Positions 13,062 to 25,001 of a stretch of DNA of 27,426 nt are shown here, piece after piece. The position numbers and the translations under genes were made by a program. Position 1 is the first letter of the stretch; the number at the start of each line of letters is the position of its first letter. This DNA is from Thiohalomonadales bacterium (GTDB lineage: Bacteria > Pseudomonadota > Gammaproteobacteria > SZUA-152), in the NCBI GenBank assembly GCA_048061555.1, contig JBGMRO010000002.1, positions 1 to 27,426 of the forward strand, read 5' to 3'. The notes below the pieces were generated by a model. That model did no database searches. It was not told the origin of the DNA and worked only from the letters and a program-made list of their open reading frames with translations.

Positions 13062-13406
13062 TTAGTAGATATAGACCGCACCTGCCTCAGGTCGGTTGCT
13101 TGTATCTCGTATACCGCTGATTGGATCGTTAAAACCGGTGGCAATGCTACCCTCTGAGGGAGCCGTAACCAGGAGTGTATGACCGTCATGATCTAATTCG
13201 ATCACGGTACCAAAAGAGTCCCGATACCCGGGGTCTGGCGCCTTCTACTAGGGTTGGTTTTTCTCCGGTACCAATGGGGCCATCTTCGTCACCACTGCTG
13301 CACACAGCATGAATACAAGGACACTGAACAAACCGCCGGTAACCACATTTGTAACGGCTTTCTTGGCGGTGCTGTAAATACGCCTACTCTTCCAGCTCTC
13401 CCTCAT
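13062..13406 (-). pseudogene. Internally deleted, frameshifted FG-GAP/integrin-like repeat lipoprotein gene
   Basis: ATG 13406 (AAGGA RBS) gives MRESWKSRRIYSTAKKAVTNVVTGGLFSVLVFML. A shift near 13303 gives CSSGDEDGPIGTGEKPTLV. A third frame (13244-13062) gives KAPDPGYRDSFGTVIELDHDGHTLLVTAPSEGSIATG...AGAVYIY*, a typical terminal bacterial FG-GAP repeat. Not in the ORF track. Confidence 0.72.
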
Positions 13407-14259
13407 CCACATCGTCCTTTTTAATGTCTTCTATATAATAAATTCCTATGCCTGTGCGGGTGCCTGGTTGGGTAAGCCCTAGCTCTTTTTCGATACGTTT
13501 TTTATTGGCCAACCACTGATTCAAATCAAGTATCAGTGCATTGCATTTGTCACGGCTAACGATCCTGAATTCATTGATGCCCGCCTTTGACAGTTGCCCA
13601 TAGACCACCTCTCTTTGGAAACGAGGCTCCTTGGAATTGTGCAGGTTGTGATCAATTGTAGTCAATAGGTCTGAAGCGCTGGTCCCCATGATAGTGAGTT
13701 TGTCTAATTCATCGGAAACGGGGACGTAACCTTGAGAGATGAGCGTGACCTTGTTCTCGCCCACCAATTTTACTGCCTCAATGCGCAGCAGCTCGTCCAA
13801 TATAGCGCCGTGCGTTACGTCCCCACTATACTGCTTAACCAATTGTTTAAAGTCAAATTTATCGCCACGTATGATCAATGTGCGTGGCTTGTTTTTCTTG
13901 CCTTGATAGTTTTTATCTTGTAACCAGCCACCCAATACACGAGAGGCACGATTTAACGGGCGACTAACATTGGAACTAGTCAGATTATTCTCAAGTAAGT
14001 TGGTGATCTTGACCACCTCTTTACGGCTCAGGCCCGACAAAACCGATACGCGCGATATCGACGTCTTCCGCCCTTGAATTCCAAAATGGTCATAGCCCAC
14101 TTTTACGAACAGTTTTTTCGCCAACTCATTAAATTCCACATGCGATACACCGCAACTCATTAGGATACGAATAAGCGGCTCCATAAGTTTCGCGGTGGCC
14201 GCGAGTACACTATTTTTTTTACTGTCCATTGCTGGGAATAATAACCCACTTCTTAGCAT
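13384..14259 (-). CDS. DUF6502 family protein (putative HTH-like regulator)
   Basis: PLIRILMSCGVSHVEFNELAKKLFV, SISRVSVLSGLSRKEV, NRASRVLGGW and FKQLVKQYSGDVTHGAILDELLR recognised as DUF6502-like. The start could instead be 14229. Confidence 0.75.
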   Translation of the reverse strand: MLRSGLLFPAMDSKKNSVLAATAKLMEPLIRILMSCGVSHVEFNELAKKLFVKVGYDHFGIQGRKTSISRVSVLSGLSRKEVVKITNLLENNLTSSNVSRPLNRASRVLGGWLQDKNYQGKKNKPRTLIIRGDKFDFKQLVKQYSGDVTHGAILDELLRIEAVKLVGENKVTLISQGYVPVSDELDKLTIMGTSASDLLTTIDHNLHNSKEPRFQREVVYGQLSKAGINEFRIVSRDKCNALILDLNQWLANKKRIEKELGLTQPGTRTGIGIYYIEDIKKDDVDEGELEE

Positions 14260-14298
14260 TGTGTAAATAATAAACAGGAATTACATCACAAAAATAGT

Positions 14299-14327
14299 TT
14301 GACAGATTATAAAAATGGGAATAAAGT
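14299..14327 (+). promoter_or_regulatory. Candidate sigma70 promoter for the five-gene operon
   Basis: TTGACA (14299-14304), 17-nt spacer, TAAAGT (14322-14327). Confidence 0.55.
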
Positions 14328-14678
14328 CCCTATTTATGGTCTGGGGAGGCTGTTATTGGTCGTAAAGTGAGCATATGGAGGCCGGTCAGTTTGCGCTAGT
14401 GATATCGGCGACGTGGGCATTCAAAACCGCGCAATCACTAAGTCTTATCTATACAAGGCTGGCAAAAAGAAATTGCTTGGGGGGATTTCTTTTAGTCGCG
14501 CAGCGGGGGGCTCGGGATGCGTTAAAGAAAACGGAAACGAGATAGTGTGAGAAATTGTTCTATGACGATTGATTAGACAGAGCGGTAGCGTCTTCAGTCT
14601 TCGATAATAATCTGCGTGTAGTGGGTTTACAAAAATAAATGTCTGTTAGCAGACGAAAATGAATAAAGGAGTTTGTCT

Positions 14679-16736
14679 ATGTCATCACCAATACGGAAAT
14701 ACAAAATAGTCTGTGGTGTTTCGCTAATACTACTGAGCCAAGGCGCGCTAGCCATTGGGACATTGCCTGGCATCAATTTTACCGAAAGGAAAACGGAGCA
14801 GGTGTCGCGTAATATCCTGGAAAAATGTGTGTTTGGGCCTGTTTGTGATTTACCGTCGAGGAATATTATCGACACAGAATCGTTTACGGGGGTACCTGGT
14901 ACAGGTGATATCGCCCCCTATTATTCTACCGCCTATTTTTCACGCGCTATCGATAGCAAAAAACTGGCGCTAGCAGATGAACTTGAGATACAGGTTAACG
15001 TTCAGTCGCATAGTGGCATTCTTCCAGATTGTGGCATTCTCGTGCGCGAATTCTTTTTTCTATACCCTGATACTTCGACGTCAAATAACATTGTTTACTG
15101 TCAAGGTCGATCAGGGGATCTTGGGAGTCCAGGTTTTAGTTTTGAATGGGGACAGAATGATACCTCACCAAAACCTGGTAGCGATTTAAGCTATCCGATA
15201 ATTAATGGTGTAAAAATGGAGAGATGGACCACTCGTCGAAATATATCCTTTAAAAATCCGCGCTTATTGTACGAGTCGGAACCGGAAAAAATGTACCAGT
15301 CCGCCAAAAGGATTGTGCCGTATACGATGATTGAATACGACCTCAGTATGACTGAAGATTTTCGTGAAAGACCAGCTAATAGTTACGGGGCGACTAAAAC
15401 TACTACAGGTCTTGTTACTAATCTTCCTCCGATACGGGCGATACTGTTAAACAAAGACACGATACGTTTAGGTTGCAAATTAGGTCGCGATGTGCAGCGT
15501 ACTATTTTAAACCAATCCATAGAGCCAGTCTCTTTACTCCAATATCCTGAAATGTCGACATTTGTTGCCGGTTTCAATCTATCAAAACAATATGACGGGA
15601 CTACTTACAAACCAAATGTACAGCTTGAAAAATTGAAGTCTGCATGTGCCGGAGTTGGTGATGGTTTGGAGGTGTTTGGATTGGGGGCAGCTGAGAACAG
15701 AAAAGTCAATCTATACATAAGATACGGAACTCTAGTCGACGAGACCAATTTATGGGATGACTACGCCACCTCAATACGAGACGATCTTAATTACCGTTTT
15801 GACATTTGGAATTCTCTGAATAACGTCAATAATACGTTTGCGAGCTCCAATACGGAGTTGTTGGCCTATCTGCAGCGGGCTGCTAACGATATGAGATTAG
15901 TATTAACGGCGTATGCGCTAGACCCCGTTAATCTTCCTGCTTTTACCCTCGCCGAAGTCGATCAGTTTTTTTATGGCCCAAGTATGGGAGATCTGGCCGG
16001 GTTATATATACCCACCATTGATGTATCGGCGGCACCGGTAAGCTGGGCTACGTTTGATAGATTTGCAAAAGATGAGGCATTAAAGGGCGACCCACTATCA
16101 CCCTATATAAATTATTCAAGTGAAGTTAAATTACTGACAGCCCTGAATGACGTGCGAATATCTGGTAGCGCGGCGGTACTGGTTAATATAGTCAACGACG
16201 CGTTGGCAGATCTAGAGAACGAAATGTCCCGAGCGAATTACTTTTTGTTGCTCGTGGCAGCAGCGAACACCAAAGTCCAGACGGCGTTGAGTATTGTTCA
16301 AAGCGAAATAACCTTGGCATTGGGCCAGGCCTCTGCGCAACCATTGACACCGCTCACGATAATTACGGCGGCTACGGCACCGACAAATCCAGCACCCGGT
16401 ACAACAACTTCCTCAAATAGTTTTTTACCGATCACGTCGAGCAATGGGCCCAATGCGCCGATAACTGCTGCATCGTACATTGATGTTTATTGGACCGGTG
16501 CTGCACCGCCAGCGGGTTATAACATCGCCATTTTTGAAGAAGCGTCCGGTCTTCTACGTATTCAAAAAAGTGTGAGTGCGATGACCTTCGATGCTACTAC
16601 GCAAGAATGGTATATCGCACTTTCTGTTACGAATACCACACGCGTGGGGAATTACATCGTTGGATTTACATCCGCAAACATAGATACGTTATTTGGTGCG
16701 CCACGCAGTGATGTCTTTAGTGTAGTACGGCCATAA
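14679..16736 (+). CDS. Secreted uncharacterised protein A1 (paralog of 22409-24433)
   Basis: AAGGAG RBS 7 nt before ATG 14679; signal peptide ending GALA; six Cys in the mature part; helical middle; Pro/Thr linker; about 100 aa beta-rich C-terminal domain. Confidence 0.85.
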   Translation: MSSPIRKYKIVCGVSLILLSQGALAIGTLPGINFTERKTEQVSRNILEKCVFGPVCDLPSRNIIDTESFTGVPGTGDIAPYYSTAYFSRAIDSKKLALADELEIQVNVQSHSGILPDCGILVREFFFLYPDTSTSNNIVYCQGRSGDLGSPGFSFEWGQNDTSPKPGSDLSYPIINGVKMERWTTRRNISFKNPRLLYESEPEKMYQSAKRIVPYTMIEYDLSMTEDFRERPANSYGATKTTTGLVTNLPPIRAILLNKDTIRLGCKLGRDVQRTILNQSIEPVSLLQYPEMSTFVAGFNLSKQYDGTTYKPNVQLEKLKSACAGVGDGLEVFGLGAAENRKVNLYIRYGTLVDETNLWDDYATSIRDDLNYRFDIWNSLNNVNNTFASSNTELLAYLQRAANDMRLVLTAYALDPVNLPAFTLAEVDQFFYGPSMGDLAGLYIPTIDVSAAPVSWATFDRFAKDEALKGDPLSPYINYSSEVKLLTALNDVRISGSAAVLVNIVNDALADLENEMSRANYFLLLVAAANTKVQTALSIVQSEITLALGQASAQPLTPLTIITAATAPTNPAPGTTTSSNSFLPITSSNGPNAPITAASYIDVYWTGAAPPAGYNIAIFEEASGLLRIQKSVSAMTFDATTQEWYIALSVTNTTRVGNYIVGFTSANIDTLFGAPRSDVFSVVRP
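16422..16730 (+). repeat. Direct repeat copy 1 (C-terminal domain of A1)
   Basis: Aligns without gaps to 24122-24430 (offset 7700). 96/103 aa identical; 25 nt differences over the 280 nt counted. Confidence 0.95.
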
Positions 16737-16790
16737 CAAGAATTGACTGGTCGCCTTTCCGATTGCTCGTTCTTAACTGCGTAATATGAG

Positions 16791-16823
16791 TGGGGACCCT
16801 CTATGGGTCATAGCAGGTCCCCA
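16791..16823. other. Intergenic GC-rich hairpin between A1 and B
   Basis: tggggacc-ct-ctatg / ggt / catag-ca-ggtcccca, followed by atttt. Confidence 0.6.
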
Positions 16824-16877
16824 ATTTTCTATGCGACATTTTTTACGCAACTATATCTATGCAACAATGGAGGTAAC

Positions 16878-18053
16878 ATGAATTTACAAACAAGATATCT
16901 GTTTGGGTTATTAATAATAATTCTGCAGTTCCCGGTATATGCGTTCGAGATCTATTCTCCTACCGGTGAACCTGTGCCCGCACAAATGGATCAAGAGGAG
17001 GCGCGCCTTAATATATTGAATAGTCGTACGAATGAAGTCGTCTTTGCACATGGTAACTATGCAATTACGAGGGATAACTTGTTTCTGGGTAATGATGGCA
17101 TATTAATGCAAAGCAAGGCCTGGTATAGCGATGCATCAGTTTGGTTGGCGTTACTTGACAGTATTGTCACCTCATTTCAGACCAATAATATTAGCCAACT
17201 TGCTCAATTTAGTGTTCGAAATAAACTTCGAACACAGATAAATAGTGCCCATACAGAATTTTTGCGATTATCGAGCAGTGCGGCATCAATTCGATCTAAA
17301 AGCCAATCTGCACTGAATACGCTCGCTGATGTGAGACGTTTTCCAGCACAGTTTGTAACAGATTTTGACGCACCGATTGTGGGTTTAGTCGCTAGAGCAA
17401 ATCAGTTGGAAGATGCGGTCATCGCGATTAATAATACACTCAATATCAGCTTTATCTCGGCAACAAAATTGGCGCTGTCCAGAACACATCAAATCTCAGA
17501 GCTCTTGTTGAAATCTGCAGTGCTAAATACACAGTATGCAGCGATACAAGGGGATCTAAAGATGATGGAGTCCGTTCTGCTAGCAGAGAATATCGTGGCG
17601 CCACTCTATGCGGAACTATTAGAAATAAAAATTAAAATCAATACGCTCGTTAACGACAGCATGCCATTCAATGCAAATTCACAATTAGCGATAATGCAAA
17701 CGAAGAGCACGCAAGCGATTGCTACAATCAATAGTGCGGGTATCGGTGCTACGGAGGCACAAAGTGGCATAGACAGAATTAATGCTTTACTATTTAAAGC
17801 ACAAAACAGCGTTTCCTTGATTATGAATGCACCAGAGGCGGCCATTGTTTCACTTTACAGGAAATTGGCGGGTATCCCAGTGCTGTATTGTCGTTATCCC
17901 ATCGGTCAGAAAAAATTTAATTGTCCATTAATGAAGTCACTGGGTGGTTTAACCAATGCTGATATTTACGCGATGACGCCGGCAGATCTAAGATATTTTG
18001 AGGACTCGATAAAAAGAGTATATGACGGACCGATAACCATCGGAGGGATTTAA
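16878..18053 (+). CDS. Secreted, largely alpha-helical uncharacterised protein B
   Basis: GGAGG RBS before ATG 16878 (ORF-track start 16803 is less likely); signal peptide ending PVYA; long amphipathic helices; C-terminal Cys pair. Confidence 0.85.
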   Translation: MNLQTRYLFGLLIIILQFPVYAFEIYSPTGEPVPAQMDQEEARLNILNSRTNEVVFAHGNYAITRDNLFLGNDGILMQSKAWYSDASVWLALLDSIVTSFQTNNISQLAQFSVRNKLRTQINSAHTEFLRLSSSAASIRSKSQSALNTLADVRRFPAQFVTDFDAPIVGLVARANQLEDAVIAINNTLNISFISATKLALSRTHQISELLLKSAVLNTQYAAIQGDLKMMESVLLAENIVAPLYAELLEIKIKINTLVNDSMPFNANSQLAIMQTKSTQAIATINSAGIGATEAQSGIDRINALLFKAQNSVSLIMNAPEAAIVSLYRKLAGIPVLYCRYPIGQKKFNCPLMKSLGGLTNADIYAMTPADLRYFEDSIKRVYDGPITIGGI

Positions 18054-18054
18054 C

Positions 18055-20379
18055 ATGAAACCTAACATGAAAAGAATGTTTATTTCTATTTTACTGCTTG
18101 CATCAAGCATCATGATGGCTCCGGGCGTGAATGCCGCAGTACAATGTAACGCGATGTTGGCGATCGATAATATGGCGGACGGTGCCAAGATTGACCCGGC
18201 ATTATTGGCTAAAATGTTGGGTCGTACGCCTCTGACTTTTATCCCCTTTGTCGCTCAAGATATCGTAGCCTGGATTGATTATTTCAATATTAATTCAAAT
18301 CCCCAACCCCAAGCCCCAAAGATTGGTGATAGAACTGTGGCTATGACTACCACCAATACCATTGAATTAAGGGAATACAAATATACGGACTTCGGCTCAC
18401 CTGGATGGGTTATGTATTCTGATGTGGGTACGGTAACGGAACTGCTGCAGGATTTAAACAAATTTGAGCAAGAAATGAATGCGCTAGGTTATTCAATACG
18501 TACCACGGATAACGACTCAATATTTTCTGACGTAGAAGCACTGTATACGGACCAGAAAAAATTGAAGGCGCAAATGCTGCATGATTTAAAGGTCGCGGCT
18601 ACCACGCAATTACTGGAGTGCGCAGCGACTATACCCGTTGCGAATTGCCCCCAGTTTGACTTGCAGTATGCACAGACGCATTTGGTTGATACCGTTGAGA
18701 GAATCGAGGTGCTTCCTGATGGTACACAGAAAAAAATAGTAGAATCAGTAACACAAATCGATCCAAATAAAAAAGTTGACATTAACGGAAATGAAGTAAC
18801 CTTATCTACACTTATAAATGCAGCGAATAGCTCAGCCAAGGTTGCCTGTTTATTAAATATAAAATTGTTCGATCTTATTCCCGGATTCCAAGCAGTCTCA
18901 ATGCCAGGAATAGATCATCCGGTGATAAGCTGGAATTTACCGACGTTAAGCTTGCCGAATTTTGGTAAAATGACCTTTGCCGGCATGAGTTCGAAACTAC
19001 AAGCGCTTGGTTGCCCGAAATTTCTATGTGGCGCATTAGCCAAAGTCGGGTTCGGTGGTAGTGGTCCATCGAAATGGTGGGAGAATTATATAGACTTCGA
19101 TTTTGCTGATTTTAACTCACCCGAAGCGCTTAAATTAAAGGCTATTCAAAATACTTTGAGTGGCTTGAGCACTAACTTTGATATTCCCAATTTATCAAAA
19201 ATGCCGGTATTGGACCCACCTACGTATCCCAAACTACAACTCAAGAAAAAGAAGGAGTGGTCAGGAATAAACCGCGGTAGCCATGACCGAGTCGGAATTG
19301 AATCTCTGGCCTATTATGAGATCTATGGTAGCGAATTAGCGCAAGCTGGTGTGGCCTATGGAAAATTCAGCGCATGGATACTTGGATTAGAGATAAATAT
19401 TGTTAGTGCAAGTGGAGATTTTTTTACCGGTGTGGCATCCGAATCTAATAATATCGGCTTAGGGCTAACGAGTGTTGATCCTAGCGATATACTAGGATAT
19501 ATGGCTATTAAGCTTCGTTATTTTGGCGATACCTGGGAGAGTATACAGAATCAAAGTGGTGGATTAGGTATCTCGGTAAATAGAGACGAACCTCCCATTT
19601 CTTTTAAATTCATTATGGGTAACAGCTATCAGTTTACGGTGGGTCCAGTACCTGTGGTCGTCACTATTGGTGGTTACTTTGAGGCGGGCCTAGACTGGTC
19701 AGCCGGTCTTGGTCCATTTAAGATGTACGCGATGCTTGAACCTTTTGCTAAGGGTGGAGGTTTCGTTCAAGGGGGTGCCGGGATTGGCAAGTTTTCTGCT
19801 GGTGTAGGTGGCGAACTGACAATAATAGATGCCCGGGTTCCCCTAGAAGCCGCCGTGCGCTTGGCGTTTTCCGAAAATGGGGAGCCCTATTTAGATCTCG
19901 GTATATCATCTAAGCCCTATTACATCACCTTGGGCGGGCGTATTTACGCCTACGTTACATACCCATGGCCTAAATTTAGTTGGAGGCCCGGCTGGAAAAC
20001 AAAACAAAAAACAAAGACACTTTTTGAAACTCCGGGAGAATTACACGACTATCCTATTTTTGATTGGGGCATGGAAGTCGGGTATCGCGGGCTGACCATG
20101 CGCGGAGATTTAATCGATCAACAAGATTTAGCCATGGCGGCAATGTTGCAAGGTTCCATAGATATTTTCAATCGCGCCGACGCCTTGTCTTCTTATCTTA
20201 GTAAAACAAATCTTAGGTTAGTCAACTTCTATACGAAACTAGGGCAAGATCTCGCGGCAGAAACGACGAATGTCCCCGTGGTTACGAGTACAGTTGTTGC
20301 CGCATCTGACGCCTTTCTATTAGAGTTAGATACCTATAATTGTCATCTTTCAACAATTGCTGGTACGCCGTGTTTGTAA
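18055..20379 (+). CDS. Secreted protein C: helical N-half, amphipathic beta-sheet C-half resembling the LLTP open beta-sheet
   Basis: GGAGG RBS; signal peptide ending GVNA; starts 1 nt after the stop of B; Gly/aromatic alternating strands from about 19243 to 20090. Confidence 0.8.
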   Translation: MKPNMKRMFISILLLASSIMMAPGVNAAVQCNAMLAIDNMADGAKIDPALLAKMLGRTPLTFIPFVAQDIVAWIDYFNINSNPQPQAPKIGDRTVAMTTTNTIELREYKYTDFGSPGWVMYSDVGTVTELLQDLNKFEQEMNALGYSIRTTDNDSIFSDVEALYTDQKKLKAQMLHDLKVAATTQLLECAATIPVANCPQFDLQYAQTHLVDTVERIEVLPDGTQKKIVESVTQIDPNKKVDINGNEVTLSTLINAANSSAKVACLLNIKLFDLIPGFQAVSMPGIDHPVISWNLPTLSLPNFGKMTFAGMSSKLQALGCPKFLCGALAKVGFGGSGPSKWWENYIDFDFADFNSPEALKLKAIQNTLSGLSTNFDIPNLSKMPVLDPPTYPKLQLKKKKEWSGINRGSHDRVGIESLAYYEIYGSELAQAGVAYGKFSAWILGLEINIVSASGDFFTGVASESNNIGLGLTSVDPSDILGYMAIKLRYFGDTWESIQNQSGGLGISVNRDEPPISFKFIMGNSYQFTVGPVPVVVTIGGYFEAGLDWSAGLGPFKMYAMLEPFAKGGGFVQGGAGIGKFSAGVGGELTIIDARVPLEAAVRLAFSENGEPYLDLGISSKPYYITLGGRIYAYVTYPWPKFSWRPGWKTKQKTKTLFETPGELHDYPIFDWGMEVGYRGLTMRGDLIDQQDLAMAAMLQGSIDIFNRADALSSYLSKTNLRLVNFYTKLGQDLAAETTNVPVVTSTVVAASDAFLLELDTYNCHLSTIAGTPCL

Positions 20380-20401
20380 GGCGGTAGTTACCGATCGATA
20401 A

Positions 20402-20455
20402 AACAAGCCGTCAACTTAAATGCGTAACCTCGTATTCTTGAGTTGACGGCTTGTT
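20402..20455. other. Long intergenic inverted repeat between C and D
   Basis: Perfect 15-bp arms aacaagccgtcaact (20402-20416) and agttgacggcttgtt (20441-20455), with further internal pairing (aatgcg/cgtatt). Confidence 0.85.
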
Positions 20456-20484
20456 ATCCACATTAATAGAGAGCTTGGATTAAT

Positions 20485-22338
20485 ATGAAACAAAAGAAAC
20501 TGGTTTTATTCTTACCCTTTGTTTTGCTGGTTATTGGTGCGTTAATATTTTTAAATGACATCAACAAGCAGACAAGCAAATCCGACGAATATTCAGGCAA
20601 GATGTCATTGCTTCAATATCATTTCCAGCCCGGTAGCGTGATTGAATACAAAATTGATTATCAATCGGAAGGGCAAGGAACCGTTAATATTAGTTCAAAA
20701 GTGAAGGCAAAAAAAAGCAGCGTCAATCATAAAGCACAGGTCGCGATGAAAGGGGGGCTGATACTAAAGCAAATTGCCAGAGATGACCAAGAGAATTATG
20801 TTGTCGAATACGAATTTACACCAGACACGATGAACATACAATACAACAACAAAGTTATACCAAAACCAGAACGAATCCAGACATCTGTGGTGATATTCCC
20901 CAATGGGACACTAAAATCATTTTATATGAAGGAAAACGTATTTTCGAACTATGGTCATATGATCAGAGAAATATTGTCCCTGCTTGAGTTTCCGCTACCG
21001 GCAGAGGCAGTGACTCATTGGTCGCATATGGAACGCAATATTAGTAAAGATCTAATGGCAAACTACATTGTAAATAACGTCAGTGATGATAAGTTGTTTT
21101 CTGTTGTTAAAACCTATGCAAAGGCTAGCAACAGCGAGTCGGTTAAAGGGCAGTTTGATTACACGTTTAATAACTCGAAAGGATATCTAAAATCCGTCCA
21201 CGGAGAACGAACCATAGAGTACAAGCTTGCTCAACAGGCAATGAGTGTTTCCACTGCTCGATTGAATGTAGAGTTTGTATCTTACTCAAAAGGAATGCAA
21301 GCACCTAGTTATGATAATACCATTTTAGGCAGCAATACGGGTATCATTGAGGAAACACTAAACGGAAAATATACGTCTACCAGAATAGAAAAAGAAGCCA
21401 ATACAAGCGCTTTAGGTAATGATGATTTAGTGACTCTCACCACTAAATTTGCAGCAGCCGATGAGTCCGATCATGCGGTATTAACAAAATTGGTCCAAAA
21501 ACTTTCCGCGTTACTTTATTTGCATCCAGACGTGTCGGGCGACGTAGCCGCGATGTTAGCAGATTATGAATATACCGACGGACGCTGGGGTGCGATCGCT
21601 GCCTCACTGGCGTACGTCGGACACCGAGAGGCACAACTAGCCATAATTGATGCGCTTAATGACACCAGCAGCGACAGCAAAACACAAATCGCCTTAATGC
21701 CGCATTTAGCGTTTGTCGGTAAACCCATCGTTGAAGCCGAAGAATACTTTCGCCAAGTGAAGCTCACGACTCGATCCGAGGAGGCGGCCTATAAATCTAA
21801 TAACGGGCTGGGCATAATCGCACAAAATCTACGTTACAGCGATAGCGATCGAGCCAAACAAATATACACAGAAGTCTCTGCAGAACTAGATAACGAGTCT
21901 GACCCGGTAAAACAAGTGCGTTTAATAGAAGCGATTGGTAATATGGGGATGGAGGAACAAACCCAATTATTGGAAGAATATTTAGACAGTCCCATCAAAT
22001 CCGTCAAATTGGCTTCGATTTATTCCTTACGCCACATCAATACCACCGATTCCAGAAGCCAACTCTTGGCCTATCTGAGCGACGATGATGAGAAGGTAAG
22101 AGAATCAGCCGCCATGGCCCTAGAATATACTACGGGCAACATGGACGCCCTACAAAAATATGAGCAGCGACTCAAACAAGAGACTAATGTCACGATCCTT
22201 AAAGTCATATTACGCAATCTCATCAAAATGTCCGATGATTTCCCGCAAAGTCTAGCGATATATGATCGATTTCTCACTACGTGTGCGCATAGGGATCTTT
22301 GTGGTTTTGCGAAGAGTTTGCGCTCGATGAGATCGTAG
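20485..22338 (+). CDS. Membrane-anchored protein D: beta domain plus HEAT-like helical domain, Vitellogenin_N/LLT-like
   Basis: N-terminal signal anchor; beta-rich residues about 40-270; helical repeats RLIEAIGNMG, VKLASIYSLRHI and VRESAAMALEY. Confidence 0.8.
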   Translation: MKQKKLVLFLPFVLLVIGALIFLNDINKQTSKSDEYSGKMSLLQYHFQPGSVIEYKIDYQSEGQGTVNISSKVKAKKSSVNHKAQVAMKGGLILKQIARDDQENYVVEYEFTPDTMNIQYNNKVIPKPERIQTSVVIFPNGTLKSFYMKENVFSNYGHMIREILSLLEFPLPAEAVTHWSHMERNISKDLMANYIVNNVSDDKLFSVVKTYAKASNSESVKGQFDYTFNNSKGYLKSVHGERTIEYKLAQQAMSVSTARLNVEFVSYSKGMQAPSYDNTILGSNTGIIEETLNGKYTSTRIEKEANTSALGNDDLVTLTTKFAAADESDHAVLTKLVQKLSALLYLHPDVSGDVAAMLADYEYTDGRWGAIAASLAYVGHREAQLAIIDALNDTSSDSKTQIALMPHLAFVGKPIVEAEEYFRQVKLTTRSEEAAYKSNNGLGIIAQNLRYSDSDRAKQIYTEVSAELDNESDPVKQVRLIEAIGNMGMEEQTQLLEEYLDSPIKSVKLASIYSLRHINTTDSRSQLLAYLSDDDEKVRESAAMALEYTTGNMDALQKYEQRLKQETNVTILKVILRNLIKMSDDFPQSLAIYDRFLTTCAHRDLCGFAKSLRSMRS

Positions 22339-22408
22339 ATAAAATTTGTAATTCAATTGTAACATATAACGAAATAATAGTGCTTTCGTAAAAATTGGGA
22401 GAAAATGT

Positions 22409-24433
22409 ATGTCATTAGATTCAAGGACGATTAAGGTTATTGCGTTAACCGCATTAGCCATATTAAGTCAAAGTGTTTGGGCGATAGGGCCATTGCCTGC
22501 CGTTAATTTTGAAGAGCGTAAGTCCGATCAAGCGTCTCGGGATGTTTTGGAGAAGTGTGTGTTTGGACCGGTTTGTGATTTGCCGGTGGTAAATATTGTA
22601 GAGTCTGTGCAGTTGCTGGCCCATTCCAATCCACAGACCGGTAACCGTAATCTCAGCGATCTATCTAATTTTGAGTATATAATCGATAGCAAAAAACTGG
22701 CAGCAGTGGATGAGCTGGATATACAAATCAGTGTCACTGAAGTCGACCAGGCACAAGCTCTTCAAGATTGTGACGTTGTGTTTGAACAATTTCGATACCT
22801 TCATCCAGAAATTAATTACATTACCGGACATTATTGCGAAGGTGGGACTAGTGGCGAGGGATATATTGCGCCCGGTGCAAGTAGAATCTACGACTCGCCC
22901 GGGGGCGGGGGTATAACAGTGAGACAAATCTCGTATCGCGATGTAATATTTTCCAATCCACGCTATACAAAAGCAGCAGACCATTTAGTTTTAGCCGGTG
23001 GTCATTTTGAAATGGTTGAATACGACGTGTCGATGAAGGAAAAATATTTTGTAGGGACATACTACCATATGGACTTAATGCAAACTGAAATTACCAATTT
23101 TCCTCCAATTAAGTCGCTGGTAAGAAGCGCGTCCGCAATTTACCTGGGATGCAGCATCAATGGTACTCCAGATGGTACTATGCGCCCGCGTTCAGGTATA
23201 CTGCGCCGTCCTCTTACATTACAAGGGCCAGTCACGGGCGCCATTACTAGAGTTACTGCTAGTATTAGTTTAGCAAAACAGTTTGACGGAGCCGCTTTTA
23301 AACTACATCCACAATTAGAGCGTATAAGAAGTGCTTGCCCTGAAATAGGAAACAATCTGATATTATTTGGGTATGTTGATCCATACACTAGCATACAGAC
23401 TACTTCACCAGTCAACATACACTTTCGATACGGAAGCATAACCGACGAAACCAACCTATGGGACAACTACGCCACCACCATAAGAGACGATCTCAACTAC
23501 AGCTTCGACACGTGGAATAATCTCAATACAATACATTCAAGCTTCACCACTTCAAATGCCGAGCTATTAAAATTCCTAGTGCAATACTCAAACAAGATCA
23601 AGGATCTATTGGGGGTATATTCATTGGATCCTGCGACACCCCTCATTGATGTGGAGCAATTTTTTTATGGACCCGGTACAGGGGATTTAGCAGGTGTTTT
23701 CATACCAATCGTTTCCATTCCAGACGCGCCCGCCGATTGGCTCGCATTTGACAGAGACGCAAAGGATAAAGCAACGGGAAAGACGCCGGTAGATGCAAGC
23801 CTAAAAAGTAGTTATGTACAATATCTGGCTGACATACAAATGTTAGACAATCTCAATGCTGTAAGAATATCCAAGAGTACGGCGATACTAGTCAATCTAG
23901 TCAACACCGCGGTACAAACATTGGATAATGAAATGTTGAGGTCGCAATACTTTTTGGCGTTGGCAGATCACGCCAAAGCGAATATAAAAACCTCCCTGGC
24001 TGCGCTTACCGGCGAAATCACGGGTGCTTTGGCACTGGCAACAAGCTCGCCAACCGTATCGCTCCAGGTAGATCCTCAACCGACTGTGTCGCCAATAAGC
24101 ACCGCACCGACTACGTTTGGGTTTTTGCCCATTACATCGAGCAATGGGCCCAACGCGCCGATCACGGCTTCATCGTTTATTGATATTATTTGGACCGGTG
24201 CCGCACCGCCAGCGGGTTATTACATCGCCATTTTTGAAGAAGCGACCGGTCTTCTACGTATTCAAAAAAGCGTGAGTGCGATGACCTTCGATGCCACCAC
24301 ACAAGAATGGTATATCGCGCTCTCTGTTACGAATACGACACGCGTGGGGAATTACTTAGTTGGATTTACCTCCGCAAACATCGATACGCTATTTGGTGCG
24401 CCACGAAGTGATGTCTTTAGTGTGGTTCGCTAG
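22409..24433 (+). CDS. Secreted uncharacterised protein A2 (paralog of 14679-16736)
   Basis: GGGAG RBS; signal peptide ending SVWA; shares EKCVFGPVCDLP, IDSKKLA, DETNLWDxYATxIRDDLNY and the C-terminal domain with A1. Confidence 0.87.
   Translation: MSLDSRTIKVIALTALAILSQSVWAIGPLPAVNFEERKSDQASRDVLEKCVFGPVCDLPVVNIVESVQLLAHSNPQTGNRNLSDLSNFEYIIDSKKLAAVDELDIQISVTEVDQAQALQDCDVVFEQFRYLHPEINYITGHYCEGGTSGEGYIAPGASRIYDSPGGGGITVRQISYRDVIFSNPRYTKAADHLVLAGGHFEMVEYDVSMKEKYFVGTYYHMDLMQTEITNFPPIKSLVRSASAIYLGCSINGTPDGTMRPRSGILRRPLTLQGPVTGAITRVTASISLAKQFDGAAFKLHPQLERIRSACPEIGNNLILFGYVDPYTSIQTTSPVNIHFRYGSITDETNLWDNYATTIRDDLNYSFDTWNNLNTIHSSFTTSNAELLKFLVQYSNKIKDLLGVYSLDPATPLIDVEQFFYGPGTGDLAGVFIPIVSIPDAPADWLAFDRDAKDKATGKTPVDASLKSSYVQYLADIQMLDNLNAVRISKSTAILVNLVNTAVQTLDNEMLRSQYFLALADHAKANIKTSLAALTGEITGALALATSSPTVSLQVDPQPTVSPISTAPTTFGFLPITSSNGPNAPITASSFIDIIWTGAAPPAGYYIAIFEEATGLLRIQKSVSAMTFDATTQEWYIALSVTNTTRVGNYLVGFTSANIDTLFGAPRSDVFSVVR
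24122..24430 (+). repeat. Direct repeat copy 2 (C-terminal domain of A2)
   Basis: About 91% nt identity to 16422-16730 over the counted 280 nt. Confidence 0.95.
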
Positions 24434-24540
24434 CAGCAAAAAATTGAAAAAGTAGCTATTTGGGAAATAGGGGACGTTGTTGGCCAAGAGGAAAAACAAA
24501 CTTATGCTAATCTTGCATGGAAATAGGCGAGAAGACTTAG

Positions 24541-24663
24541 ATGCCAAAATTAGCGAGGCTTGATACGCTAGGAACACTACATTATGTCATTTTTCGGGGA
24601 ATATAACGCTACAAGATCATCAGTGATAATGTTTATCGAGATAGTTTTGTTTCTCGAAAGTAA
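24541..24663 (+). pseudogene. N-terminal fragment of a REP-associated tyrosine (RAYT / Y1 HUH) transposase
   Basis: MPKLARLDTLGTLHYVIFRGI*RYKIISDNVYRDSFVSRK* matches the recalled RAYT start MPRxARLDxPGxLHHVxxRGIERRxIFxDDxDRxxFLxRL. In-frame TAA at 24604 where GAA would be expected. Confidence 0.75.
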
Positions 24664-24677
24664 CAAAGTAGAACTAG

Positions 24678-25001
24678 TTATAGGTTTTTATTTTCAAACT
24701 CCATTAATTCTATTGGGGCACCATTGACCTCTATAAATGCAACCACCAAACCTTCACTAGGTGAGGTTGGCTGTATGATTACCTTTTTACCTTCTATTTC
24801 TCGCAATAGATTTTTTACGACAAAGGCAACATGAGGAACAGTTTTTACCAATTCAGGGTATGGTGCGTCATCCCAATAACGTTGCCATTGAATACCATAA
24901 GGATTATTTTCATGATCTGACACCGTCATTCTTAAATGAGGGAGATCGATTTCTCCCTCAAATTTATCTTTAGTGGGTATTCCAATATGGTTAAATTTCA
25001 T
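24678..25001 (-). CDS. Small VOC/glyoxalase-like protein
   Basis: AGGA RBS before MKFNHIGIP (ATG 25001); VPHVAFVV and GAPIELME are VOC-like metal-site motifs. The ORF-track extension to 25130 is not supported. Confidence 0.7.
   Translation of the reverse strand: MKFNHIGIPTKDKFEGEIDLPHLRMTVSDHENNPYGIQWQRYWDDAPYPELVKTVPHVAFVVKNLLREIEGKKVIIQPTSPSEGLVVAFIEVNGAPIELMEFENKNL

Follow-up and report, generated by a model that had tools for sequence, protein, structure and literature searches.

An operon in a 27,426-nucleotide stretch of DNA from a Thiohalomonadales bacterium (contig JBGMRO010000002.1; the whole stretch is called the window here) begins and ends with genes for two large exported proteins, A1 and A2, which are closely alike in some of their parts and very different in another. 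What would two such proteins do in one operon? The five genes, in the order A1-B-C-D-A2, all lie on the + strand and are flanked by a divergent DUF6502 gene and a convergent gene. In an earlier reading made from the letters alone (the sequence-only reading), A1 and A2 had been proposed to share a disulfide scaffold with a diversified central head and to act as interchangeable specificity subunits on a shared B-C-D core. We found that the divergence between the two proteins is concentrated in a β-rich head, that gene conversion tracts are restricted to the conserved modules, and that the A genes adjoin a C-D pair in both loci for which genomic context is available. The explanation that we rate best, at somewhat less than an even chance, is that A1 and A2 serve one C-D envelope complex as accessory subunits, each bringing a different head.

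Divergence and conservation in the A proteins

A1 is best taken to start at the ATG at 14679, with AAGGAG 8 nt upstream, and A2 starts at the ATG at 22409, which is preceded by GGGAG. Residue numbers in this text are those of P0001, which uses a TTG start at 14673 and is thus two codons longer than A1 counted from its ATG. Over their whole length the two proteins share 326/709 identities (46%; BLASTP, E = 0) and are evidently paralogs. All motifs quoted in the sequence-only reading can be found in the translations, namely the mature N-terminal motif, IDSKKLA..DEL.IQ, YG...DETNLWD.YAT.IRDDLNY.FD.WN and its two examples of variable segments, and the six mature cysteines align between A1 and A2 as it had stated (C52, C58, C120, C143, C268, and C325; exactly six in each mature protein).

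Relatives of the two proteins are scarce. A word-indexed search of 5.8 billion proteins returned only A1, A2, and the metagenomic protein P0007 (47% identical; ERZ21818094), and an exhaustive hidden Markov model search of 1.84 billion representative proteins gave four full-length members, including an additional one, P0009, which lies beside a second A paralog on an 8.1-kb contig (GCA_006240815.1, VAOX01056415.1; L005 in the following). From this search the family comprises five proteins from three environmental sources, and the A profile matched only A-family proteins and carriers of their C-terminal domain among the representatives, with no module of the large lipid transfer proteins (LLTPs). 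A scan of JGI metagenomes recovered the L005 contig again and nothing further, and a search of the ESM Atlas gave no usable match. A was absent from 60 related genomes, 31 of them from the same family, and no homolog was found in species-representative genomes, viral contigs, or plasmids. Neither A1 and A2 nor the three other members matched a Pfam-A, NCBIfam, PADLOC, or PHROGs family at E ≤ 0.1-1. The sole sequence match in the PDB, ThiI (E 0.025, 16 bits), was read as chance, and toxin, defence, and phage readings of A were rejected, having no support from PADLOC or PHROGs. The family that A1 and A2 define has no catalogued relative, is unnamed, and is very rare.

The divergence within this family is not uniform, which bears out the diversification that the sequence-only reading had described. 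The head (residues 121-346) is 18-32% identical in all ten pairs among the five proteins. Identity in the mostly helical region that follows (residues 347-553) is 88% for the L005 pair, 75% for A1 and P0007, 50% for A1 and A2, and 31-41% between the loci. Identity in the helical region thus follows how closely the proteins are related, whereas the head is similarly distant whichever pair is compared, indicating that the head evolves at a pace of its own. In A1 versus A2, the head has 39 gap columns and an identity of 29%, whereas the rest of the scaffold (residues 28-120 and 347-553) has 14 and 50%, respectively (Fisher p = 2e-6). The corresponding values are 29% versus 63% for A1 and P0007 (p = 3.5e-14) and 32% versus 75% for the L005 paralogs (p = 2.8e-21). 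Over the four within-group pairs tested, the gap columns numbered 39-157 in the head versus 9-21 elsewhere, with Fisher p values from 2e-6 to 2.8e-21. The non-synonymous distance is 0.8-1.05 in the head and 0.14-0.44 in the conserved modules.

Homology of the heads remains recognisable within the group formed by A1, A2, and P0007 (E about 1e-13 to 5e-14; 4.9e-14 for A1 and A2). Between this group and the L005 proteins only the ADEL.IQ...DC block is detectable in pairwise comparison; the cysteines nonetheless align. The head has thus diverged nearly to saturation in sequence and loop lengths, between modules that are conserved and in part homogenised in the paralogs; in other proteins such a pattern marks recognition surfaces. 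No head variants were seen in the sole DNA run, which holds only same-strain contigs at about 6-8x.

All five proteins have the same N-terminal design, with an AxA-type cleavage site 2-3 residues ahead of a conserved LP..NF.E motif (5/5). The alignment of homologs from the three sources extends the conservation of the six cysteines from A1 and A2 to all five members, together with several Gly, Pro, and aromatic positions. C52 and C58 in the N-terminal motif are among the residues kept throughout, as are D102, E103, L104, Q107, D119, and C120 in the 94-120 block. The conserved cysteines are predicted to form three disulfide bonds. Each L005 protein has four further cysteines; two of them lie in insertions of the head, and the helical region and the C-terminal tail hold one each. 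Head length varies from 215 to 268 residues in the five members, and the composition is rich in Gly, Ser, Thr, Asn, Asp, and Pro (39-44%). Secondary structure was assigned from a low-confidence full-length model of A1. Comparison by hhalign gave no significant homology of A with B or C (E 0.14-0.19).

Two details of the layout differ from the sequence-only reading. A distinct variable region does exist, but it occupies the N-terminal half (residues ~63-346, with the conserved 94-120 block within it) and is no central insert. The conserved blocks of the scaffold stand as described, although the description was incomplete, since a Pro/Thr-rich linker and an immunoglobulin-like (Ig-like) C-terminal domain follow them.

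This C-terminal domain is the part in which A1 and A2 are most alike. The two copies are 92% identical in amino acids and 89-90% in nucleotides, with a synonymous distance (dS) of 0.41, and form a 300-nt direct repeat. The domains of A1 and P0007 are only 69% identical, though in the helical region P0007, and not A2, is the nearer relative of A1. Because the C-terminal domain is nearer between A1 and A2 than between A1 and P0007, opposite to the other regions, we read the likeness as a signature of gene conversion, after which the copies drifted mainly at synonymous sites. A separate tract of 97-99% nucleotide identity lies within the helical region of the L005 pair. In both loci the conversion tracts are restricted to conserved modules and the heads remain distinct.

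Known forms of programmed variation were not found at the locus. There is no template repeat, a 44-nt conserved block and the C-terminal domain are the only direct repeats, and no inverted repeats lie beside the heads, a pattern unlike that of a diversity-generating retroelement, a shufflon, or a cassette system. Head-only searches for silent cassettes in the 87%-complete genome matched A1 and A2 only.

The model of the C-terminal domain (AlphaFold2 (AF2), 6-sequence alignment) has a mean predicted local distance difference test (pLDDT) of 80.2 and a predicted template modeling score of 0.71, and it matched sandwiches of the Ig V-type and MG2-type (Foldseek against PDB, E down to 3.6e-4; template modeling (TM) scores of 0.5-0.69 in AFDB and the ESM Atlas). 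The C-terminal 105 residues are thus modeled as an Ig/MG2-like β-sandwich, a fold too generic to assign a function; the likeness to Ig-like and MG2-like domains lies in the predicted fold and is not accompanied by a sequence-family match. A sorting domain of the type IX secretion system (Por_Secre_tail) would fit the position and the Ig-like fold, but the domain has no match in Pfam and is confined to A1 and A2 in the genome, and this candidate was rejected.

The same domain ends three other metagenomic proteins, P0011, P0010, and P0012. P0011 is a 902-aa secreted protein with an N-terminal Zn_dep_PLPC domain (E 1.6e-8; L014:6155-10136, JGI 3300022562), P0010 is a 245-aa fragment of a P0011-like protein, and P0012 combines a β-helix with PKD. 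P0011 recalls clostridial alpha-toxin, which consists of a Zn-phospholipase C and a C-terminal β-sandwich that binds membranes. The two share an N-terminal Zn-phospholipase C followed by a C-terminal domain, of the A type in P0011. The parallel does not extend to identifying the A-type domain as PLAT/C2-like or membrane-binding, and the analogy, which concerns P0011 only, is a lead to a role and not a classification.

The C-D pair beside the A genes

The second locus with context, L005 (3502-7253), has the order C-D-A'-A'', with the A paralogs in tandem; the contig begins inside C, and an OMP_b-brl gene follows the paralogs. D and the next A gene are on the same strand in both loci, separated by 70 bp in the window and by 29 bp in L005. 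Each of these loci holds two A paralogs, a count that the sequence-only reading had suggested making. Between the loci, identity is 31-49% in the conserved blocks of A, 49% in C, and 45% in D, and this similar divergence is as expected for co-inherited parts. In the helical region both L005 paralogs resemble A2 (38-41%) more than A1 (31-34%), and the heads are unpaired (18-24%), so that no one-to-one orthology connects the two pairs. The L005 proteins are without the Ig-like domain.

D is the member of the operon with the clearest relatives. It has a HEAT_2 match (E 7e-13), and its ESM Atlas model (pLDDT 0.75) resembles bacterial clusters of HEAT_2+Vitellogenin_N (feature score 0.97, 220/256 features, TM 0.61) as well as animal MTP clusters (TM 0.46-0.48). 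With P0017 from a distant gammaproteobacterium (G360), D aligned over 496 columns (hhalign probability 94.8%, E 5e-8). D has no PF01347 match at E ≤ 0.1, and a remote homolog in the L010 locus (G042), the positional counterpart of P0017, reached 23.1 bits vs the cut-off of 24. The predicted models make D a probable bacterial relative of the vitellogenin-N/MTP module, the N-terminal part of animal LLTPs. With the animal proteins (MTP large subunit, vitellogenin, apoB; PF01347) D shares the architecture of a β-region and a helical repeat, and also the presence of a distinct large exported partner, encoded next to the D-like gene in every case. It differs from them in staying below the Pfam threshold. 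It is D, and perhaps C, to which this comparison applies; no similarity to any LLTP part was detected in A1 or A2. Nothing on bacterial vitellogenin-N proteins was found in the literature searched.

C, the partner encoded upstream of D, has a Gly-rich β-region and a helical tail that ends in a Cys pair, and MTP/vitellogenin is among its weak structural look-alikes. In 7/7 further loci of Pseudomonadota, the D-like gene is likewise directly preceded by a same-strand gene for a large exported protein. In two loci from distant gammaproteobacteria (L010:8042-13756, L011:9637-15387) this partner is a lipoprotein with a length of about 770 aa, and the surroundings belong to lipid metabolism: in L011 the lipoprotein-D pair is closely preceded by a gene for a PlsC-type acyltransferase, and in L010 the second gene downstream of the pair encodes a phospholipid methyltransferase (PEMT). 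In the five other loci (L118-L122, from G596, G581, G511, G536, and G460) the partner is a giant of 2,800-3,000 aa and the D-like HEAT proteins, signal-anchored like D, have 611-675 aa. The similarity between C and the 770-aa lipoproteins is weak and lies in the Gly-rich β-segment (hhalign E 6e-4, probability 28%), and a HMMER search with the C profile did not recover the partner proteins of the other D-like loci, which leaves C a candidate member of that partner family. B matched no Pfam or NCBIfam family and was not found in the 60 relatives. Of the specificity subunits on a B-C-D core in the sequence-only reading, the linkage of A to C-D and the focus of divergence on the head have thus held, and the core is verified for C-D alone, with B an orphan.

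Source material, neighbouring genes and feature coordinates

The DNA comes from a metagenome-assembled genome of 4.57 Mb in 858 contigs that is 87% complete. It belongs to an uncultured gammaproteobacterium, with a ThiC that shares 77-81% identity with those of unclassified Gammaproteobacteria assemblies. A sediment metagenome is the only listed sequencing run that contains the operon, and no RNA run is listed. Independent Logan contigs of this run end inside both copies of the C-terminal-domain repeat (16598-16725, 24148-24374); A1-B-C-D-A2 is still the sole linear path that fits the pieces. The G+C content of the operon (0.40-0.46 over 14001-25000) is slightly below that of the housekeeping genes to its left (0.45-0.50), and this, with the absence from the 60 related genomes, is compatible with horizontal acquisition. 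The stop codon of B is 1 nt ahead of the start of C. In the 105-bp spacer between C and D, a stem-loop may be an RNA element within the operon or a site of processing or stability. The coordinates of all features are given in Table 1.

Table 1. Genes of the A1-B-C-D-A2 operon, modules of A1 and A2, and adjoining features (window positions; residues in P0001 numbering).
Feature	Position	Strand	Description and basis
DUF6502 gene	13384-14259	-	divergent from A1
A1 gene	14679..16736	+	685 aa from ATG; open reading frame, ribosome-binding site, 46% identity to A2
A1 signal peptide (Sec)	14679..14753	+	predicted cleavage after ALA; read from sequence
A1 mature N-terminal motif, residues 28-62	14754..14858	+	Cx5C loop; 71% identity A1/A2, 38-57% across loci
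A1 short variable stretch, residues 63-93	between N-terminal motif and 94-120 block	+	alignment
A1 block IDSKKLA..DEL.IQ...DC, residues 94-120	14952..15032	+	56% identity A1/A2; 44-nt direct repeat D2 in DNA
A1 variable β-rich head, residues 121-346	15033..15710	+	with C143, C268, C325; 18-32% identity, all ten pairs
A1 conserved, mostly helical region, residues 347-553	15711..16331	+	helices in low-confidence AF2 model; identity 75% P0007, 50% A2, 31-34% L005 paralogs
A1 Pro/Thr/Ala-rich linker, residues 554-582	16332..16418	+	20-50% identity; low-complexity composition
A1 C-terminal Ig-like β-sandwich, residues 583-687	16419..16733	+	predicted; AF2 pLDDT 80.2; 92% aa identity to A2 copy
B gene	16878..18053 (alternative start 16803)	+	exported, predominantly helical orphan protein; open reading frame
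C gene	18055..20379	+	exported 774-aa protein; 49% identity to partial C of L005
Stem-loop in C-D spacer	20402..20455	+	18-nt arms; inverted repeat I3, 94% complementary
D gene	20485..22338	+	signal-anchored, β-region and HEAT-repeat region, vitellogenin-N/MTP-like; HEAT_2 match, Atlas model
A2 gene	22409..24433	+	674 aa; open reading frame, ribosome-binding site, module order as in A1
A2 signal peptide	22409-22483	+	same order as A1
A2 N-terminal motif	22484-22588	+	same order as A1
A2 head	22772-23416	+	same order as A1
A2 helical region	23417-24040	+	same order as A1
A2 linker	24041-24118	+	same order as A1
A2 Ig-like domain	24119-24430	+	same order as A1

A role of the DUF6502 gene upstream of A1 as the operon's own regulator was considered and rejected. 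The genome has seven copies of this gene (the one in the window and those on contigs C27, C224, C521, C630, C729, and C758), and in 3/4 further copies with a readable downstream gene, DUF6502 stands directly before a same-strand gene for a large lipoprotein with a Gly/Asp-rich start; its position near A1 may be incidental. DUF6502 and the large lipoprotein gene look like a recurrent two-gene unit. The gene of P0011, like that of A1, is divergent from a DUF6502 gene, which shares 46% identity with the DUF6502 gene of the window. Nothing on DUF6502 was found in the literature searched.

Readings of the two heads

The operon is built around the two-gene module of C and D, in which D resembles the N-terminal module of animal LLTPs. 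If A1 and A2 are accessory subunits, the conserved modules of both, kept alike by gene conversion, would dock on one and the same partner, and the two proteins would present two different heads to two different ligands, for example a lipid, a surface, or a cargo. We rate this reading best because the mature N-terminus and the helical region are conserved, and the Ig-like domain is homogenised in one subgroup, as one would expect of a docking surface that both proteins share, and because the head resembles a contact surface that has diversified. Docking to C-D, binding of ligands by the head, and interchangeability of A1 and A2 are what we infer from this pattern.

Several observations weigh against it. 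The family is limited to five sequences. None of the seven further D-like loci has a relative of A or B, and two nearly complete genomes with a D-like module, searched whole with the A profile, have no A. The C-D type of module thus lacks A in other genomes and A is therefore a clade-specific add-on rather than a part of the core; the locus belongs to a narrow clade in which the module of partner and D gained B and two copies of A. The gene of P0007 has no neighbour on its 2.6-kb contig, neither in the 150 bp before it nor in the roughly 220 bp after it, and a contig so short and non-coding on both sides cannot decide the linkage of P0007 to C and D. The full-length AF2 model of A1 (3-sequence alignment) reached a pLDDT of only 34.6, and the ESM Atlas model a pLDDT of 0.36. 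The regional ratios of non-synonymous to synonymous change that the sequence-only reading had called for were computed and the head does have a high non-synonymous distance, but the proportion of synonymous differences (pS, Nei-Gojobori) is 0.6-1.0, that is saturated, everywhere except in the C-terminal domain, so that the ratio is uninformative on positive selection, which is undemonstrable here.

This saturation, which precludes the test of positive selection, also leaves room for an account in which the head differences reflect relaxed constraint and neutral drift after duplication in a tolerant, loop-rich domain with no role in specificity. The composition of the head and its many indels would suit such drift. 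We consider it quite unlikely, given that the head cysteines and the invariant Gly, Pro, and aromatic positions are kept in 5/5 members, that length stays within the range given above and the frames are intact, and that conversion homogenises the flanking modules yet leaves the heads distinct in both loci. Unlikely, though less so, is that A1 and A2 are clients or cargo of the C-D module, loaded as apoB is by MTP, with the helical region holding lipid and the head exposed and fast-evolving. D resembles MTP/vitellogenin-N, the animal MTP module acts on a separate large secreted protein, apoB, and the A-type C-terminal domain also ends the Zn-phospholipase-C-like P0011, which hints at a lipid or membrane theme; the conserved mature N-terminus and the domains maintained by conversion, however, fit a docking interface at least equally well.

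The occurrence of exactly two A copies in each locus with context and the homogenisation of the shared domains would also agree with an obligate hetero-oligomer, in which A1 and A2 are complementary, not interchangeable, and paired by their identical C-terminal domains. The lack of one-to-one orthology between the window and L005 pairs and the absence of the Ig-like domain from the L005 proteins speak against this arrangement, to which we assign a low probability. It is more improbable still that A1 and A2 are free-standing secreted proteins of an adhesin-like or toxin-like kind that are mere neighbours of B-C-D. Their Ig-like C-terminal domain is common to secreted enzymes and adhesin-like proteins (P0011, P0012), and P0007 appears alone on its short contig, but the adjacency of D and A recurs on the same strand and with short spacers in loci that are only 45-49% identical, and neither matches to toxin, defence, or phage families nor relatives on plasmids or viral contigs were found.

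Accessory subunits of this kind would have parallels in type IV pilins and two-domain fimbrial tip adhesins, which combine a conserved assembly part with a variable binding part. The A proteins share with them a conserved terminal segment, a braced variable region, paralogs, and gene conversion on the conserved parts. They differ in having no prepilin motif, no usher or chaperone genes nearby, and no silent cassettes, and they are far larger (~680 aa) with a helical region of ~200 residues; no sequence or fold relationship is evident.

A more far-reaching version, which we regard as a long shot, is that C and D are a bacterial two-piece counterpart of the lipid-transfer proteins, and that A1 and A2 are exchangeable, head-diversified adaptors or acceptors that gene conversion keeps compatible. 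If true, this would be an envelope system for handling lipids in which the choice of target or cargo is set by swappable paralogs. The A genes sit in what appears to be a rare elaboration of a bacterial vitellogenin-N/MTP-like two-gene module that is itself without a described function. If A does not dock on this module, A1 and A2 would represent a well-delimited orphan family of secreted proteins of sediment bacteria; if it does, the A proteins would offer an experimental handle on what the module binds or moves.

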